Shown piece by piece: positions 17,530 to 47,732 of a DNA stretch of 64,000 bases (its first letter is position 1; every line of letters begins with the position of its first letter). A program made the translations under genes and the position numbers. This DNA comes from Candidatus Poribacteria bacterium (GTDB lineage: Bacteria; Poribacteria; WGA-4E; PCPOR2b), in assembly GCA_965218095.1 (NCBI GenBank), contig OZ244587.1, positions 5,376,001 to 5,440,000 on the forward strand, given 5' to 3'. The notes under the pieces were generated by a model. It was given only the letters and a program-made list of their open reading frames with translations, had not been told where the DNA came from and made no database searches.

Positions 17530-19404
17530 CTAAAGGAGCTCCCACAGGAGCACCGTGCCGTCCTCACTTCCACTTGCAAGCGTCGCTCCATCCGGACTGA
17601 ACGATACGCTCAAGACCGGACCCGTATGCCCTGTGAGGTTTTTTTTGTGTGCGCCCGTGACCGCATCCCACAGGCGGATAGTCTTGTCCCTACCCCCACT
17701 TGCAAGCGTCGTCCCATCCGGACTGAACGATACGCTAGTGACCGAACCCGTATGCCCCGTGAGGGTGTTTTTGTGTGTGCCCGTGACCGCATCCCACAGG
17801 CGGATGGTCTTGTCATCACTCCCACTTGCCAGCGTCGCCCCATCCGGGCTGAACACAATGCTCTCAACCCCATGCCCCGTGAGGTTTTTTTTGTGCACGC
17901 CCGTGACGGCATCCCACAGGCGGATGGTCTTGTCATCACTCCCACTTGCCAGCGTCGCCCCATCCGGACTGAACGATACGCTAGTGACCGAACCCGTATG
18001 CCCTGTGAGGTTTTTTTTGTGCGCACCCGTGACGGCATCCCACAGGCGGATGGCACCGTCCCCACTCCCACTTGCCAGCGTCGCCCCATCGGGACTGAAC
18101 GATACGCTCCAGACCCAATCCGTATACCCCGTGAGCGTGTTTTTGTGTGCGCCCGTGACCGCGTCCCACAGGCGGATGGTGCCGTCAGTACTCCCGCTTG
18201 CTAGCGTCGCCCCATCCGGACTGAACGATACGCTATTGACCTCCCAGATCACAAACGACGTATGCCTCGTGAGGTTTTTTTTGTGTGCGCCCGTGACCGC
18301 GTCCCACAGGCGGATGGTGCCCTCCCAACTCCTACTTGCCAGCGTCGCCCCATCCGGACTGAACGATACGCTAGTGACCGAACCCGTATGCCCCGTGAGG
18401 TTTTTTTTGTGTGCGCCCGTGACGGCATCCCACAGGCGGATGGTCTCGTCCCTACCCCCACTTGCAAGCGTCGCTCCATCCGGACTGAACGATACGCTCA
18501 AGACCGGACCCGTATGCCCCGTGAGGTTTTTTTTGTGTGCGCCCGTGACGGCATCCCACAGGCGGATGGTCTTGTCATCACTCCCACTTGCCAGCGTTGC
18601 CCCATCCGGACTGAACGATACGCTAGTGACCCAATCCGTATGCCCTGTGAGGTTTTTTTTGTGTGCGCCCGTGACGGCATCCCACAGGCGGATGGTCTTG
18701 TCCCTACCCCCACTTGTCAGCGTCACCCCATCGGGGCTGAACGATACGCTCAAGACCTCCCGGATCGCAAACGACGTATGCCTCGTGAGGTTTTTTTTGT
18801 GTGCGCCCGTGACGGCATCCCACAGGCGGATGGCGCCGTCCCCACTCCCACTTGCCAGCGTCGCCCCATCCGGACTGAACGATACGCTAGTGACCGAACC
18901 CGTATGCTCCGTGAGGTTTTTTTTGTGTGCGCCCGTGACGGCATCCCACAGGCGGATGGCGCCGTCCGAACTCCCACTAGCAAGCGTCACCCCATCGGGG
19001 CTGAACGATACGCTAGTGACCGAACCCGTATGCCCTGTGAGGGTGTTTTTGTGTGCGCCCGTGACGGCATCCCACAGGCGGATGGTCTTGTCCCAACCCC
19101 CACTTGCCAGCGTCGCCCCATCCGGACTGAACGATACGCTATAGACCCTATCCGTATGCCCCGTGAGCAGGGCGATCTCTTGATGGGTCGCCATATCATA
19201 GAGCCAAATGCCGATGGAACTGCCGACCGCGAGACGAGCACCGTTGGGGGAATACGCGATATTACCAGATATCGAGCCTTTGCCGATGCGCGTTGTGGCG
19301 CCTTCGGGTAAACCCCATTCCGTGTAATCTTGGGCGAAGCTAGTTGGTAGAAACAGGCTAGAAACAAAAAGGATGGTTAAAATGGAAAATAACGTGGTTT
19401 TCAT
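17530..19404 (-). CDS. Secreted WD40-repeat beta-propeller protein
   Basis: Signal peptide [12 protein letters not shown]; [12 protein letters not shown]; 13 near-identical [25 protein letters not shown] repeats plus one divergent blade; GGAG RBS. Confidence 0.95.
17540..19170. repeat. Tandem ~126-bp coding repeats (WD40)
   Basis: Recurring GCCCGTGACGGCATCCCACAGGCGGATGG and GGACTGAACGATACGCT units. Confidence 0.95.
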
Positions 19405-40716: not shown

Positions 40717-42069
40717 ATGCGACAAAAAACCATCATGCCCCTTGGCATCACGCTGCTGATTTTACTCATCGGCTGCGGTGGTCACCAAGCGGATGTGGCT
40801 TGGCAAGAAGCCCGTCCTTTGGGCAGAGACCTAACAACCTCAAAACCCTCAATTCACCCCCCAACGGCTGAAAAATCGCCCCAATTCCAAGAGCCAACGG
40901 GGACAACTAATCTACGCCAAGCCCTCGCGCTGGCACTGACGCACAATCCCGACTTGAAAGCCTTCTCTTGGGCTGTCCGTGCCGGAGAAGCCAAAACACT
41001 CCAAGCCGGACTTCGTCCGAACCCGGAGTTAGAAACTAAAATCAAGGAATTCGGTGGGTCGGGTGCCCTTAGCGGTTTCAGCGCAATTGAAACAGCGATT
41101 CAACTCAGCACCCTGATTGAACTCGGTGGGGTGCGCGGCAAACAGAGACAGGTCGCTGCCCTTGAGACGGAACTCGCCGGTTGGGACTACGAAACGGCGC
41201 GTCTCGATGTGCTGACCCAAGTGAACCAAGCCTTCATTGATGTTCTTGCGGCACAAGAGGCGGTCGCTTTGAACGAGGAATTGGTTCGACTGGCGGAACA
41301 GGTTTTCAACACCGTCAAGGCACAGATCGAGGCGGGAAAGGTTTCGCCTGTTGAAGGCACACGAGCTCAAGTTGAACTTGTAAACAGTCGAATAGTCCTT
41401 GAGGGTTCAAGACACGGGCTTGAGGCGGCACGTTTTGCGTTGGCTGCCACTTGGGGGAGCACATCACCAACATTTGAAAGGGTAGAAGGTCAGCTTGAAA
41501 TGACTAACCCCATTCCAACAGCCGGACAGTTGGCAAATCGGCTTTCGCAGCACCCGAACATCGCACGTTGGACGGTTGAGATGGCGCACCGTCGTGCGGT
41601 GATTAAGCTGGAAAAATCAGGGTGCCTCCCTGACCTGTCCATCGGTAGTGGGATGAAGTACCTCAACGAGAGCGATGATGTCGCATTTATCTTCGGGTTA
41701 TCCCTTCCGCTCCCACTTTTTGATCGGAATCAAGGGGCGATTCGTGAAGCTGAATACAACCTCGCAAAGGCGTTTGAGGAACGTAAATCGGCGGAAGTTG
41801 CCGTTCGCACGGCACTCGCGACTGTGTATGGTGTGCTCTCTGCCGCCGCAACTACCGTCACGGTCCTAGAAGACGAAGTGTTGCCGAGTGCGCAAAGTGC
41901 GTTCGATGCCGTAACCGAAGGGTATCGTATCGGCAAATTCGACTTTTTGGAAATGCTCGATGCCCAACGAACCCTCTTTGATGTGAGAGGTTCGTACATC
42001 GATGCTTTGACGAAATACCACAAAGCCGTTGCCGACGTGGAACGGTTGATTGGAGAACCCCTTCGATGA
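40717..42069 (+). CDS. czcC: CzcC/TolC outer membrane efflux protein
   Basis: QAGLRPNP, LPLPLFDRNQG, GYRIGKFDFLEMLDAQR. Confidence 0.9.
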   Translation: MRQKTIMPLGITLLILLIGCGGHQADVAWQEARPLGRDLTTSKPSIHPPTAEKSPQFQEPTGTTNLRQALALALTHNPDLKAFSWAVRAGEAKTLQAGLRPNPELETKIKEFGGSGALSGFSAIETAIQLSTLIELGGVRGKQRQVAALETELAGWDYETARLDVLTQVNQAFIDVLAAQEAVALNEELVRLAEQVFNTVKAQIEAGKVSPVEGTRAQVELVNSRIVLEGSRHGLEAARFALAATWGSTSPTFERVEGQLEMTNPIPTAGQLANRLSQHPNIARWTVEMAHRRAVIKLEKSGCLPDLSIGSGMKYLNESDDVAFIFGLSLPLPLFDRNQGAIREAEYNLAKAFEERKSAEVAVRTALATVYGVLSAAATTVTVLEDEVLPSAQSAFDAVTEGYRIGKFDFLEMLDAQRTLFDVRGSYIDALTKYHKAVADVERLIGEPLR

Positions 42070-42166
42070 GTAGGTGGGGGAGCGAGTACAGGAGGTAGAC
42101 GTTTGGGTTACTTACACAGATACACCCCGATTCGAACACTCTCATATTTTCAAAGGAGATGATTTG

Positions 42167-44053
42167 ATGCAGATTCGGACACTGAAAAATCGAAAAACAT
42201 TACTTATTATCACTGTGGCTGTGTTAGGGTTTTTCGGCGCGTGGCGGATTGGAACAAACGACCTCGCCGCTCAAGATGGGCATGAACACCCTGAAAAGAC
42301 ATCCGACCACGACGACCACGCAGACCACGACGACCACGCAGACCATGATGAGCATGGTGAGCACGACGACCATGAAAAGCATGATGAACATAAAGATGTG
42401 GTCATGCTCTCGGACGCCGATATGAAAAAGTTCGGCATCGAAGTCGCTACGGCGAGCGCGGGGAAACTCCCGGTGGACATCAGCCTGCCCGGCGAAGTCA
42501 CCGTCAATGAAGACCGCATCGCCCACGTCACGCCGCGTGTGCCCGGTGTTGTGCGCGAAGTAAGAAAGACGCTCGGCGATTGTGTTCATGCCGGGGAGAT
42601 CATGGCAATTCTCGATAGCCCGGAGATGGGGGAAGCGCAAGTGGCATACCTCGGTACGAAAGCGGATCTTGATGTTGCCAGAGCGAACGTCAATCTGGCG
42701 GAAACCAAACTTCAGGTCGCCAAAGCACAGCGCGATGTTGCCCGGATACAGGTGGAGGTCACTCAAACCGACTACGATCTTGCCGTCACCCATGTTGCAA
42801 CGGCAAAGACAACCGCTGATGTGAAGCGGGTGGAAGCGAAGATCACAGAGACCGACTATCAGTGGGGTGAAACGGTGCACGACAATACAGGTGAACTCCT
42901 CAAACAGCTTGCGGAAAGCCCGACAATCAACGAAATCGCCATTGCCTTCAAAGGCAAACCGATTGGTGAAAATCGGAAACACATTCTCCAAGCGTATGCC
43001 GAGTTGAATTTTGCCGACGCCGCTTACGATCGGGAGGAGACGCTTCATAAGAAGGGGATTTCCAGCGAGTTTGACTACCTTGAAGCGCAGAAAGGTTACA
43101 CCATCGCGAAAGCGGCGTTTGAAGCCATCACCGAAGAACTGGCGTTCCAGAATCGGTTGGCTTTGATGGAAAAGAAACGGGCGGTTGATGCCGCAATGCG
43201 TGATGTCCAAGAAGCCGGACAGACGCTCAAGTCCGCTAACGGTGCGGTGAAGTCCGCCGCAAGTGTAGTGAACGCCGCCGAAAGTGCGTTGCAAGCGGCG
43301 GAGATGGAAATCCGTGTTGCCGAGCAAGATCTGAAGGTTGCACGGCAGACGCTTGAAGTTGCACGCTTGAAGCTGTGGGCGGCTGAACGGAAACTCTATA
43401 TCTTGGGGTTGGGCGATGACGAAATCGCGGCATTGAATGATATTCCCTCTAATGGGCATCCCGACGTGACCCGGTCCGTGATGTATGCACCGTTTGATGG
43501 CGTCGTTGTCGAAAAACATATCGTCCTCGGCGAAGCCTTAAAGGACGATAGTGAAGCCTTTGTGGTTGCCGATCTGTCTTCGGTGTGGATCAAGATCAAC
43601 GTTTACCAGAAAGATCTGCTCGTTGTGCGGAAAGGGCTCCTTGTTGTGCTTTCCGCCGGACACGGTATTCCCACGGCAAGGGAAAAGATCGCTTGGGTGG
43701 GTCCACTGCTCGATGAGCATACCCGAACCGCGCTGGGGCGAGTTGTGCTCCCAAACCCCGATGGTCACTGGCGTCCGGGACTGTTCGTCACCGCGAAAAT
43801 TGCGGTCGATGAAATCGACGTGCCTCTGCTTGTTCCCAAAGCCGCCCTTCAGACCGTCGAGGACCGGCTCTCCGTTTTCGTCCAGACCGATGAAGGCTTT
43901 GCGCCGCGCCCTGTCACGCTTGGGCGAAGTACCGAAACCTATGCTGAGGTGACAAAGGGATTGCAACCGGGGCAACGGTATGTGACAAAAGGTGCGTTTA
44001 CGCTGAAAGCCGAATTGGTCAAAGGATCTTTTGGTGACGGACACGTTCATTGA
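42167..44053 (+). CDS. czcB: CzcB-type RND periplasmic adaptor, His-rich, with very long coiled coil
   Basis: DHDDHA repeats, VTPRVPG, APFDGVV, DLSSVW, WRPGLFV. Confidence 0.9.
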   Translation: MQIRTLKNRKTLLIITVAVLGFFGAWRIGTNDLAAQDGHEHPEKTSDHDDHADHDDHADHDEHGEHDDHEKHDEHKDVVMLSDADMKKFGIEVATASAGKLPVDISLPGEVTVNEDRIAHVTPRVPGVVREVRKTLGDCVHAGEIMAILDSPEMGEAQVAYLGTKADLDVARANVNLAETKLQVAKAQRDVARIQVEVTQTDYDLAVTHVATAKTTADVKRVEAKITETDYQWGETVHDNTGELLKQLAESPTINEIAIAFKGKPIGENRKHILQAYAELNFADAAYDREETLHKKGISSEFDYLEAQKGYTIAKAAFEAITEELAFQNRLALMEKKRAVDAAMRDVQEAGQTLKSANGAVKSAASVVNAAESALQAAEMEIRVAEQDLKVARQTLEVARLKLWAAERKLYILGLGDDEIAALNDIPSNGHPDVTRSVMYAPFDGVVVEKHIVLGEALKDDSEAFVVADLSSVWIKINVYQKDLLVVRKGLLVVLSAGHGIPTAREKIAWVGPLLDEHTRTALGRVVLPNPDGHWRPGLFVTAKIAVDEIDVPLLVPKAALQTVEDRLSVFVQTDEGFAPRPVTLGRSTETYAEVTKGLQPGQRYVTKGAFTLKAELVKGSFGDGHVH

Positions 44054-44075
44054 AACGTGAAACGTGATGCGTGAA
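44051..44075 (+). repeat. Heptamer tandem array (left arm)
   Basis: TGAAACG-TGAAACG-TGATGCG-TGAA starting at the czcB stop codon. Confidence 0.85.
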
Positions 44076-44095
44076 GGATTTAGGGAGGGAAGAAG

Positions 44096-44558
44096 ATGAA
44101 TTATAAGGATTGGGAAGTAGACGTGCCTGCGGTGCTCAAGAGTGATTCGTTGTGGAAGATGGAGGCATATCGGCAGACGTTGTTTGCTGCTGATTTGGGC
44201 TGGCATGACGTGACGAAGCTGATGAAAGATCGGCGAACAATTGGACTGTCAGATCAATTGTACCGTGCCTTGGGGTCAGTCAGTGCAAATATCGCCGAAG
44301 GCTATTCTCGTGGTACGCGCAAAGACCGAGCACGTTTTTACGAATACGCCCTCGGCTCGGCGCGAGAGAGTCGAGGATGGTACTACAAGGCAAGACATCT
44401 TCTTGGAGAAGTTGTTGCACCGTTTGGAATTGCTTACCATTATCATCCGGCTTCTGTTGAAGATGATTCCACAACATCGAGATGGCACAATCCGCGAATC
44501 TGAAGCCACATACAACACTGATAGCCGAGATATTTTCACTACCGTTCCACTGCCATAA
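44096..44558 (+). pseudogene. Four-helix-bundle protein (23S IVS protein/Avd-like, TIGR02436-type) with a frameshift near 44419
   Basis: DQLYRALGSVSANIAEGYSR, FYEYALGSARE; C-terminus HRLELLTIIIRLLLKMIP in the next frame. Confidence 0.88.
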
Positions 44559-44596
44559 TTACGTTTCACGTTTCACGCTTCACGTTTCACGTTTTA
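44559..44596 (+). repeat. Heptamer tandem array (right arm, inverted)
   Basis: TTACGTTTCACGTTTCACGCTTCACGTTTCACGTTTTA. Confidence 0.85.
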
Positions 44597-44612
44597 ACAC
44601 ATGGAGGCACAA

Positions 44613-47600
44613 ATGCACAAAATCATCGAATTCGCCCTGCATCGCCGCACCCTAATCATCGTCATTGGGATACTGGTCATGGTGGCGGGCTACTACAGTT
44701 ACCGTCAGCTACCCGTCGATGCCTTTCCTGATGTGACACCGGCGTTGGTTCAGGTCTTCACACTCACCGAAGGGCTTGCGCCAGAGGAGGTTGAGCGATA
44801 TGTGACCTACCCGGTCGAGGTTGCCATGAACGGGCTTCCCCATCTCAAGGAGATTCGCTCGGTGTCCAATTTCGGGCTGTCGGTTGTGAATATCTACTTT
44901 AAGGACGGCACGGACATCTACTTCGCCCGGCAGTTGGTGGGTGAAAGACTACAACTCGCCCGCGAGGGGATGCCCGAAGGCTTCGGAGAGCCGGAGATGG
45001 GGCCCATCACGACCGGGCTGGGACAAATTCTCTTTTACTTCGTGGAGGACGAGGACAGGGCTTATGACCTGTTTGAATTGAGAACGATACAGGATTGGCT
45101 CATCAAATTCAATCTTCAAACCGTCCCCGGCGTCACGGAAGTGCTGTCCATCGGCGGAGAGGTCAAGCAATTCCATATCCTCGTTCGTCCCGACGACCTT
45201 CTGCGGTACGACCTGACACTCGACGAAATCGTGGAAACGGTCAAGGCGAACAACGCCAATGTCGGGGCGCAGTTCATCGTAAAAAACTCTGAGGAATACA
45301 TCGTCCGCTCAGTCGGGCTTGCCGAGAAGATTTCCGACCTTGAACAGATTGTGCTGAAATCTAAAGATGGTACGCCGGTGTATCTCAATCAGGTCGCTGA
45401 TGTCACAATTGGCGGGGAAATCCGGCGCGGATTGACAACCATCAACGGTCAAAGCGAGACCGTTGTGGGTATGGTTCTGAAACTCATCGGCGAGAACACC
45501 TCGACCGTTATCCGTGATGTGAAAACACGGATGGAAGCAGTCAACAAGGTGCTGCCGCCCGGAATCGAGGTCAAGACGTACTATGATCAGGCGACACTGA
45601 TTTCTAAATGTGTCAAAACGGTCACCGATGCACTCATTCAGGGGATTATCCTTGTTGCGATTGTCCTTTTGGTATTCATGAGCGGTCTGAGACCGAGTGT
45701 GGTCGTTGCAATCGCCATCCCTTTTTCAATCTTCTTCGCCTTCATTCTGATGAACGCCTTCGGAATTTCAGCGAATCTGATGTCACTCGGCGGGCTTGCG
45801 ATTGCCATTGGCATGATGGTAGACGGTACGATTGTGATGGTGGAAAATGTCGATCGACACCTGCGGATGTCCAACCCGCTGGCGTCACGTCTTCAAGTTG
45901 TTGCGCGTGCCTGCACCGAAGTCGCACGTCCAATTGTCTTTGCGATCTCCATTATTATCATCGTCTTCCTACCGCTGTTTACTTTAGGTGGTGTCGAGGG
46001 GAAAACCTTCCGTCCGCTGGCATACACCGTCGCGCTGGCAATGGGTGGGTCGCTGATTTTCGCGCTATTGATGGCGCCGGTCGCGGCATCGCTTCTTATG
46101 CGGCGACCACGCCAACGCGAAGGCGCAGCGACCGATGGGAATGAAAGCCGAATTGTTCAGTTTTTGGTAATTCCATATCGACCTGTGGTGTGCCTTTTTG
46201 TGCGTTTTCGCTCCTTGGCGGTGGGACTGGCGGTACTGATGCTCGCTGTCGGCGCGATTATCTTTCCGTTTCTTGGCTCGGAGTTCGTTCCCCGCCTCAA
46301 TGAAGGTGACCTGCTGATTCGTGCCACGATGGCCCCGTCGATCTCTTTATTGGACGCCCGTGATACGATTCTCCACCTCGAACGCGATATGCAGGAAAAA
46401 TTTCCAGAGGTGACGCAAATCGTCACACGGGTGGGACGTGGCGAAGTTGGGGCGCACGCCGATCCGGTGAACAATGCGGAGATCTTCATCCGGCTCAAGG
46501 AGCAGCGAGAATGGACCTCGGCAAAAACGCTCGACGAACTTTACGCTAAGATGAGCCACACCTTTGAAGATTTCCCCGGCGTGCAGTTGAATTTCAGTCA
46601 ACCCATCGCCATCGCCGTTGATGAACTCTTGACCGGCGTCAAAGCGGAATTGGCAATCAAAATCTTTGGTCCCGATATGGAGGTGTTGAAAGAAAAAGCC
46701 GCCGAAGTCGAAACGGTCATTCGCACGATAAAGGGCGCGGCAGACGTGCAGAAAGATCAGGTGACTGGCACACCACAGCTTCGTATCACCATCGACCACG
46801 CGGCGATTGCCCGTTATGGGATTAACGTCGAAGATGTGCAGCGTGTCATTCAAACCGCTGTCGGTGGAGAAGAAGCGGGACAGATCTTTGAAGGTATTCG
46901 CCGTTTTGATATTCTGGTTCGCTACACGCCTGAGAGCCGCCGCAGTCTGGAGACTATCGGCCATATCTTGATTTCGGCGCCAGATGGCGTGAAAGTACCG
47001 CTTGATGAATTGACAACGATCGAAGATATTGTCGGTCCGCGCCAAATCACGCGGGAGAACAACCAACGGTTCATCACGGTGCAGACCAATGTTCGCGGCA
47101 GGGACATCGGCTCTTTTGTCGAAGAGGCACAAGAAGCCATTGACGCAAGCGTTCAGTTTCCGCCCGGCTATCTTGTAAGTTGGGGCGGTCAGTTTGAACT
47201 CCAACAGGAAGCGAATAAACGGCTGTCCCTTGTTGTCCCAATAACGCTACTCATCGTCTTTCTGCTACTGTTTTCGAGTTTCAACTCCCTGAAGAATGCG
47301 TTGCTAATTATCCTCAACATTCCATTGGCGTTAGTCGGGGGTGTCGTTGGACTCTGGCTGACAGGGCAGAATCTCTCCGTGCCTGCCTCTGTCGGATTCA
47401 TCGCCCTGTTCGGCATAGCGCTGGAGAACGGCATGGTGCTGGTCACCTATCTTAACCTGCTTCTCCGCGATGGTACCCCAATGGATGAGGCATCGGTGGA
47501 GGGGGCGTGTCAACGACTCAGACCTGTATTGATGACTGCGATTACTACCACGCTGGGGCTGATTCCGCTGTTAGTTTCACAAGGCACTGGCAGCGAGGTG

Positions 47601-47732
47601 CAGCGTCCGTTGGCGACGGTGGTCGTCGGGGGTTTGGTCACATCAACCATTCTGACATTGTTGGTGATTCCCGCACTTTATAAGTGGTTCTCCGTTCGGA
47701 TTGAGCCGGAAGCCGTATCCGCAGCCAATTAG
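44613..47732 (+). CDS. czcA: CzcA/CusA heavy-metal RND permease
   Basis: LPVDAFPDVT, AIGMMVDG, RLRPVLMTA; GGAGG before ATG 44613. Confidence 0.95.
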   Translation: MHKIIEFALHRRTLIIVIGILVMVAGYYSYRQLPVDAFPDVTPALVQVFTLTEGLAPEEVERYVTYPVEVAMNGLPHLKEIRSVSNFGLSVVNIYFKDGTDIYFARQLVGERLQLAREGMPEGFGEPEMGPITTGLGQILFYFVEDEDRAYDLFELRTIQDWLIKFNLQTVPGVTEVLSIGGEVKQFHILVRPDDLLRYDLTLDEIVETVKANNANVGAQFIVKNSEEYIVRSVGLAEKISDLEQIVLKSKDGTPVYLNQVADVTIGGEIRRGLTTINGQSETVVGMVLKLIGENTSTVIRDVKTRMEAVNKVLPPGIEVKTYYDQATLISKCVKTVTDALIQGIILVAIVLLVFMSGLRPSVVVAIAIPFSIFFAFILMNAFGISANLMSLGGLAIAIGMMVDGTIVMVENVDRHLRMSNPLASRLQVVARACTEVARPIVFAISIIIIVFLPLFTLGGVEGKTFRPLAYTVALAMGGSLIFALLMAPVAASLLMRRPRQREGAATDGNESRIVQFLVIPYRPVVCLFVRFRSLAVGLAVLMLAVGAIIFPFLGSEFVPRLNEGDLLIRATMAPSISLLDARDTILHLERDMQEKFPEVTQIVTRVGRGEVGAHADPVNNAEIFIRLKEQREWTSAKTLDELYAKMSHTFEDFPGVQLNFSQPIAIAVDELLTGVKAELAIKIFGPDMEVLKEKAAEVETVIRTIKGAADVQKDQVTGTPQLRITIDHAAIARYGINVEDVQRVIQTAVGGEEAGQIFEGIRRFDILVRYTPESRRSLETIGHILISAPDGVKVPLDELTTIEDIVGPRQITRENNQRFITVQTNVRGRDIGSFVEEAQEAIDASVQFPPGYLVSWGGQFELQQEANKRLSLVVPITLLIVFLLLFSSFNSLKNALLIILNIPLALVGGVVGLWLTGQNLSVPASVGFIALFGIALENGMVLVTYLNLLLRDGTPMDEASVEGACQRLRPVLMTAITTTLGLIPLLVSQGTGSEVQRPLATVVVGGLVTSTILTLLVIPALYKWFSVRIEPEAVSAAN

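Follow-up and report, generated by a model that had tools for sequence, protein, structure and literature searches.

The closest described counterparts of the element analyzed here are the intervening sequences (IVSs) of 23S rRNA genes. In PMC4990558, IVSs such as those in helix 45 of Coxiella burnetii and in Leptospira are inserts of 400–760 nt in a transcribed region that possess terminal inverted repeats forming a long stem and an open reading frame (ORF) for an S23p/PF05635 protein. The same paper, which cites Ralph and McClelland (1993) on IVSs, presents their distribution as sporadic, their mobility as suspected but unexplained, and the function of S23p/PF05635 and the origin of 23S IVSs as questions that have been open for ~30 years (PMC4990558). 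The element under study occupies positions 44051–44596 of a 64,000-nt window of the genome of a Candidatus Poribacteria bacterium, where it separates czcB from czcA in a czcCBA-type operon. It probably is a decaying copy of an insertable cassette that entered at the DNA level downstream of the czcB stop codon and ahead of the Shine-Dalgarno sequence of czcA. An earlier note on this DNA described the element as intervening-sequence-like, which is apt for its parts, an S23p/PF05635 protein and terminal inverted repeats. As in IVSs, the ORF is enclosed by a predicted terminal stem: an inverted-repeat search recovered arms of 26 nt with 92% complementarity (44050–44075 and 44572–44597, 496 nt apart) which pair in both the minimum free energy (MFE) and centroid folds. 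Unlike IVSs, the element lies between two mRNA cistrons and not in helix 9, 25 or 45 of 23S rRNA, its arms consist of tandem units of 7 nt (8 nt elsewhere) in variable copy number, and the same units also occur as gene-less arrays and hairpins at dispersed sites in the genome. The only large subunit rRNA gene of the source genome (G000, a single contig of 6.35 Mb; other G numbers denote related Poribacteria genomes) is located at G000:C1:1367066–1370084, measures 3019 nt against a model of 2925 positions, and contains none of the six PF05635 matches of the genome. Thus, by its defining location the element is not an IVS, although it is built like one.

RAYT proteins are HUH/Y1 transposases with known chemistry, and REP elements are single palindromes. 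In REP/RAYT systems, as in the cassette, a single gene is flanked by an inverted short element that also is dispersed alone or as hairpins, and the dispersed copies outnumber and outlive the gene. Dispersed intergenic copies are abundant in the source genome (263 arrays and 42 left-right hairpins). In contrast to RAYT, the window gene specifies a small PF05635/TIGR02436 helical bundle with no known catalysis, and the arms are tandem arrays. By analogy, the cassette arrangement would work most like REP/RAYT, with a protein that is no known transposase. Unlike a DNA transposon with terminal inverted repeats or the source of its miniature derivatives (MITEs), the cassette encodes no transposase, the four-helix-bundle gene being its sole ORF. 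The TAACTGA heptamers of Beggiatoaceae, cyanobacteria and Bacteroidetes resemble the arrays in being 7-nt stop-containing units that are almost exclusively intergenic, oriented to the neighboring gene and common to distant phyla, but are direct repeats just 5′ of start codons with one inverted pair only (PMC4679880). That text makes no mention of ‘intervening’, ‘four helix’ or ‘S23’. The Avd protein of diversity-generating retroelements shares the fold family, structures 2GSC and 4DWL having been compared in PMC10053308, and solved relatives have five chains per entry. In contrast to the Avd arrangement, the neighbors of the window gene are czcB and czcA, and no reverse transcriptase, template or variable repeat is adjacent, no wider search for a reverse transcriptase having been made. 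Cyanobacterial STRR-type repeats were rejected: the genome has no Photo_RC gene and no HIP1 excess, and its close relatives are Candidatus Poribacteria.

The features of the operon and cassette, with the evidence for each, are as follows.

40717–42069, + strand: outer-membrane factor gene of the efflux operon, czcC-like (PF02321 OEP, E 3.9e-46)
42074–44053, + strand: czcB-like periplasmic adaptor gene (PF16576, E 2.3e-39; TIGR01730, 119.5 bits, cut-off 94.9)
44051–44075, + strand: left array, 3.6 units of TGAAACG/TGATGCG (sequence; Tandem Repeats Finder, period 7 × 3.6)
44083–44089, + strand: putative Shine-Dalgarno-like GGGAGGG of the cassette gene, 6 nt 5′ of ATG 44096 (from the sequence)
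44096–44416, + strand: 5′ part of the four-helix-bundle gene in frame 1, helices 1–3 (PF05635, TIGR02436 and the model of alignment A1, which comprises seven intact relatives)
44414–44418, + strand: frameshift, ~5 nt missing compared to intact relatives (alignment of relatives; contigs of runs X1, X3 and X10)
44418–44558, + strand: 3′ part of the four-helix-bundle gene in a second frame, last helix and C-terminus (translation compared to alignment A1)
44561–44596, + strand: right array of ACGTTTC/ACGCTTC units, the inverse complement of the left units (repeat search; Tandem Repeats Finder)
44603–44607, + strand: czcA Shine-Dalgarno sequence GGAGG, kept from the uninterrupted junction (sequence; orthologs)
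44613–47732, + strand: czcA, a heavy-metal efflux RND pump of the CusA/CzcA family (TIGR00914, 1113.8 bits, cut-off 701.45; PF00873)

The czcB stop codon TGA (44051–44053) forms the initial three bases of the first unit in the left array. The triplet recurs at 44058, 44065 and 44072 so that stops are present in all three reading frames: because a 7-nt period shifts the frame from unit to unit, the stops of three units (44051, 44058 and 44065) close every frame. Tandem Repeats Finder delimited the right array to 44561–44594 (period 7 × 4.9), and the arm itself ends at 44596. When counted base by base, the 25-nt arms proposed in the earlier note give 23 Watson-Crick pairs, one G-U and one U-U, and the distance of 6 nt from the right arm to the GGAGG of czcA also was as the note had it. 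Comparison with orthologs places the czcA start at ATG 44613 and not at 44601. The assignment of the enclosed gene to four-helix-bundle proteins was borne out, as ORF 44096–44503 matches PF05635 (E 4.5e-16, 59.4 bits, cut-off 33.8) and TIGR02436 “four helix bundle protein” (63.7 bits, cut-off 24) above the curated cut-offs, and the subfamily profile matches PDB 2gsc_A with E 1.8e-5. No terminator-like site was detected in 43700–44900, promoter-like sites in the region were limited to one, a number not above that in shuffled sequences, and 43800–44800 matched no Rfam family at E values up to 1. The cassette probably is co-transcribed with the czc operon.

Orthologs of czcA with 87–93% amino acid identity were located in six related genomes. 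The junction is empty in five of the six orthologous operons (G017, G022, G003, G016 and G027), where neither arrays nor gene are present and the order is the czcB stop codon TAA, at the same codon position as in the window, ~4 nt, GGAGG and ATG. The comparison of junctions that the earlier note had proposed as a check thus uncovered empty sites and upheld its view that the segment is an insert into a normally tight junction. The same gap in the sixth genome, G014, is filled by a different insert of ~520 nt, whose PF05635 gene belongs to another subfamily, contains an in-frame TAG and is bordered by GC-rich inverted arms with an 8-nt period. The czcA tree joins G014 to G017 and G022, both of which are empty at the junction (support 100/100), and leaves G000 outside that group. 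This topology implies that the fillings in G000 and G014 are independent gains. On the evidence of the empty junctions, segment 44051–44596 is an acquired insert in the tight czcB-czcA junction.

The copy in the window no longer is intact. Undamaged relatives of the gene span ~150–156 residues. The window gene follows these relatives in frame 1 until ~44416 and thereafter in the frame of ORF 44241–44558, whose stop codon TAA (44556–44558) is located 2 nt 5′ of the right array. The 5′ part matches positions 1–108 of the alignment A1 model (E 1.0e-56), the PF05635 match ends at profile position 81 of 106, and the gene does not amount to a complete four-helix ORF. The frameshift recurs, with no further insertions or deletions, in contigs of runs X1, X3 and X10, and over 885 nt X3 has 18 other differences from the window sequence. 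Thus, the frameshift is real and is common to diverged strains, and the window gene is a pseudogene unless the frame is recoded. Breakage is widespread: ~14 of 29 loci of the same subfamily (the window subfamily) in the Poribacteria family are broken. Across the family-wide PF05635 matches, in-frame stop codons were observed in 13 of 72, with at least one TAG in nine and TAG as the sole stop in six.

The window subfamily also occupies the atpA-atpG junction in relatives, where intermediate stages are preserved. The comparison covered the 26 genomes in which the junction was recovered, G000, G019 and G002 not being among them. The full cassette is present in eight genomes (G009, G024, G018, G017, G043, G005, G001 and G010), an internal deletion that retained both arrays in seven (G013, G016, G020, G021, G023, G041 and G042), and only traces of arrays in three (G015, G007 and G004). 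The site is empty in seven genomes (G011, G014, G022, G003, G044, G008 and G006) and, when read separately, in G000. In G012 (L178) the junction is filled by 504 nt of unrelated sequence that includes a small ORF. At filled sites the first left unit begins with the atpA stop codon, as it does with that of czcB in the window. The series from full through deleted to trace sites shows that gene-less hairpins and solitary arrays can arise from full cassettes. The cassette is patchy across genomes, often broken and located at different sites in different genomes, and thus behaves like a selfish element, as the earlier note proposed, or a neutral one. The G010 cassette (L181) is an exception in polarity: its arrays are very long, with ~1 kb between anchors, and right-type units also are present upstream of the gene.

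All four-helix-bundle genes of the source genome were collected, another check that the earlier note had named. The six PF05635 copies each lie between co-directional genes, and five have periodic arms on both sides. Apart from the window copy, these comprise an intact gene with arms of 8-nt period that begins directly after the upstream stop codon (L001), an interrupted gene between small- and large-subunit genes with 7-nt arms of another unit (L005), a fragment of the window subfamily with arms (L004), a degenerate copy with purine-rich and pyrimidine-rich arms (L003), and a 5′-truncated copy that retains the right arm only (L006). None of the 28 relatives searched has a cassette at the site of L001. 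The genes on either side of it abut in these genomes, with 45–272 nt between anchors at the 18 loci where both flanks were found, and relatives of the L001 gene reside at other sites in G007, G011, G020, G005, G009 and G043. Some left arrays are immediately followed by a short CCCGAT..ATCGGG-type palindrome (G000:C1:1340833–1340863 and 2380094–2380130) which also is present inside L003; it may represent a second small inserted element.

The period of the arms follows the subfamily of the protein. Arm periods were derived from an autocorrelation scan of 28 Poribacteria-family loci, as a strict detector of adjacent units had missed 8-nt arrays. Both arms have a 7-nt period in eight of nine cassettes of the window subfamily, whereas both have an 8-nt period in all seven cassettes of subfamily B and all six of subfamily C; the remaining six loci display mixed periods. 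The left 8-nt units of subfamily C (L031, L035, L044, L048 and L036) are purine-rich with GGAGG-like motifs and the right units are the CCTCC-rich complements, so that these arrays resemble repeated Shine-Dalgarno and anti-Shine-Dalgarno sequences.

The arrangement extends beyond Poribacteria. A search of the species-genome collection with the alignment A1 profile yielded 506 relatives. The best 80 loci display 59–76% identity to the Poribacteria protein and include representatives of Anaerolineae and other Chloroflexota, Verrucomicrobiota, Acidobacteriota, Marinimicrobia, Rhodothermales, Ignavibacteria and Lentisphaeria. Flanks were assessed at the 78 loci where each side offered at least 100 nt, and arrays were scored if they had at least three units and lay within 200 nt. 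A left-type array (CGTR every 7 nt) is located upstream at 45 loci and a right-type array (YACG every 7 nt) downstream at 55, compared to five and five loci with the opposite polarity and 12 with no array. At the 65 loci with long flanks, the adjacent windows contain arrays in 38 and 44 cases, whereas windows 500–700 and 800–1000 nt away were positive in three of 520 tests. The arrays around window-subfamily genes are more than chance. Both arrays are present at 34 loci; in 32 of these the left array coincides with the end of a same-strand ORF, and in 31 the right array is followed, at a median distance of 30 nt, by the start of a same-strand ORF. Moreover, in five gene-carrying genomes of other phyla the same arrays are present genome-wide, with 17–209 matches compared to 0–27 for the reversed pattern. 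A cross-locus permutation of arms (own median 14.5, cross-locus 10; 6 of 78 loci above the 99th percentile) was not discriminating because the cassettes share one unit family, and the distant-window controls were used instead.

These patterns suggest how the cassette might operate. Its parts are a left array of short tandem units, a PF05635 gene preceded by a presumptive ribosome-binding site of its own, and a right array in which the left units recur as their inverse complement. The empty orthologous junctions show that it entered the DNA of a czcCBA-type operon, in the 3–5 nt that separate the stop codon of czcB from the Shine-Dalgarno sequence of czcA. Such an insertion would be tolerated because both the czcB stop codon and the czcA ribosome-binding site are left in place, the left array offering a stop in every frame the right array ending just 5′ of the latter site, and no terminator-like site lying inside. 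As unit length and sequence track the protein subfamily, with 7-nt ACG-type units in the window subfamily even in other phyla and 8-nt units in subfamilies B and C, the protein appears to recognize its own arrays. This self-recognition, of either RNA or hairpin DNA, may underlie the spread of the cassette. Gene-less hairpins and solitary arrays then would be non-autonomous derivatives or scars, as REP elements are relative to RAYT. The window copy of the gene already is inactivated by the frameshift.

Alternatively, the element might act at the RNA level, with the arrays pairing in the czcCBA transcript and the stem either placing the czcB stop codon beside the czcA ribosome-binding site, which would restore coupling, or being cut by RNase III. 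The near-complete pairing of the arms is consistent with this possibility, as is the long-range stem in the folds of 44040–44625 (−187.9 kcal/mol, z −2.73, none of 100 shuffles as stable), and ORF-bearing IVSs with a 28-bp terminal stem that is cut by RNase III are described in PMC4990558. However, the best arm alignments of 69 related cassettes include 80 G:T, 107 A:C and 160 other mismatches on the sense strand, which is no wobble excess, and among orthologous atp cassettes the left units vary in order with no compensation in the right array, which is constant. Unit number also varies one arm at a time, with one unit more on the left in X11 and one fewer on the right in X10 and X1. Furthermore, a ribosome terminating at the czcB stop codon would melt the left arm. 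Contigs from RNA libraries bridge both arrays, X11 joining czcB to the left array and X10 reading out of the 3′ part of the gene, across the right array and on into czcA, although X10 contigs do not cover 43553–44137. No joint that skips the insert was found in the contigs of four runs (RNA/DNA), which cannot show cleavage or RNA ends. RNAduplex analysis of 220-nt flanks was uninformative as the duplexes spanned the whole flanks. That the arms are exactly complementary seems to be a side effect of building two inverted arrays from one unit family. With neither a G:U excess nor compensatory change, and with left-array changes that draw no response on the right, the suggestion in the earlier note of an RNA fold that would neutralize the insert gains no comparative support, and an RNA-level element is an unlikely alternative to a cassette inserted as DNA.

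The same units are scattered through the source genome. Arrays of at least three units comprise 137 of left type and 126 of right type, compared to 1–18 for 12 control cores. Within 80 nt, pairs of arrays with at least two units are distributed as 42 left-right, 1 right-left, 12 left-left and 14 right-right. The left-right pairs are gene-less hairpins with loops of 5–68 nt that occupy intergenic regions of every configuration, 41 being between gene calls and one inside an ORF call. When the arrays are read in left-type orientation, an ORF of at least 80 codons ends between 30 nt upstream and the inside of the array at 102 of 263 arrays versus 27 of 260 random sites, and in 63 of the 102 the stop codon is the TGA or TAA of the array itself. 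This placement at gene boundaries would suit a host regulatory module in which the four-helix-bundle protein is a sequence-specific RNA- or DNA-binding regulator, the boundary arrays tag its regulon, and the czc copy subjects czcA to the same control. The five chains per entry of the solved relatives 2gsc and 2rld would suit binding to tandem repeats, and the intergenic TAACTGA heptamers of Beggiatoaceae have been proposed to be regulatory (PMC4679880). Nevertheless, of the window-subfamily copies in G000 the only one with both arms is frameshifted and the other is a fragment, about half of family loci are broken, array-rich genomes exist without the gene, and sites are filled, scarred or empty among close relatives. 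A regulatory module therefore is distinctly improbable. Least credible, and already disfavored, is a coincidence in which the small gene merely sits between two copies of a REP-like host repeat at gene boundaries: left-right pairs within 2 kb in G000 (seven) are not commoner than other combinations (5, 13 and 11) and four of the seven enclose ordinary genes, but empty orthologous junctions lack both arrays and gene, the same polarity surrounds the subfamily in many phyla and is almost absent 500–1000 nt away, and the unit period follows the protein subfamily.

Several observations weigh against a mobile cassette that entered as DNA. The cassette has no transposase, recombinase or reverse transcriptase, and to our knowledge no catalytic role has been assigned to a helical bundle of 150 residues. 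No target-site duplication was detected at the atp junction, and the L001 site displays a possible repeat of 5–7 nt. The linkage between subfamily and unit may reflect common descent only. Two insertions in one junction do not necessarily imply targeting: a spacer of 15–18 nt can take an insert harmlessly only in the gap between stop codon and Shine-Dalgarno sequence. Viral contigs contained no relative of the window subfamily. Array abundance in 29 family genomes is higher where a gene or remnant of the subfamily is present (median 70 versus 11; p 0.002, uncorrected for kinship), but is only weakly correlated with the number of intact genes (rho 0.30, p 0.11), and arrays are plentiful in genomes without a subfamily gene (51 matches in G003, 72 in G015 and 55 in G014). 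Thus, the arrays need no resident intact protein.

The insertable cassette nevertheless remains the favored explanation, and the locus is a case of a gene-plus-inverted-arms unit acting as an insert in ordinary operons. Filled and empty sites are cleanly distinguished, and one junction acquired cassettes of two types on independent occasions. The relatives supply a decay series from full cassette to bare arrays and tie the cassette to abundant arrays that supply stops at gene ends. These features are relevant to annotation where small genes and repeats coincide at operon junctions and where repeats provide stop codons. The cassette family is widespread and apparently undescribed: literature searches found no description of such cassettes outside rRNA, and the 13-nt double-unit strings were not found in any paper. 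A broader proposal, which is tentative and more doubtful than that for the locus itself, is that PF05635 proteins are the sequence-reading subunits of widespread hairpin-armed cassettes, each subfamily with its own 7- or 8-nt unit, that seed hundreds of boundary arrays and gene-less hairpins in many phyla, and that 23S IVSs are the special case of cassettes that landed in rRNA. If true, the PF05635 family, the IVSs and the heptamer arrays that in many genomes have lacked an explanation would all be accounted for at once.

The czc operon itself (40717–47732; L008–L013) looks horizontally mobile. The 87–93% identity of czcA extends to another genus and even to another family (G027), and only six of 16 genomes of that other genus have a czcA match at E 1e-100, most being without a match. 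The 5′ part of czcB (42304–42387) includes coding repeats with periods of 9, 18 and 27 that would specify a His/Asp-rich run, probably a metal-binding stretch. Elsewhere in the window, 17559–19167 is a long tandem repeat with a period of 126 nt in 12.6 copies (or 390 nt in 4.2 copies) and 84% matches.

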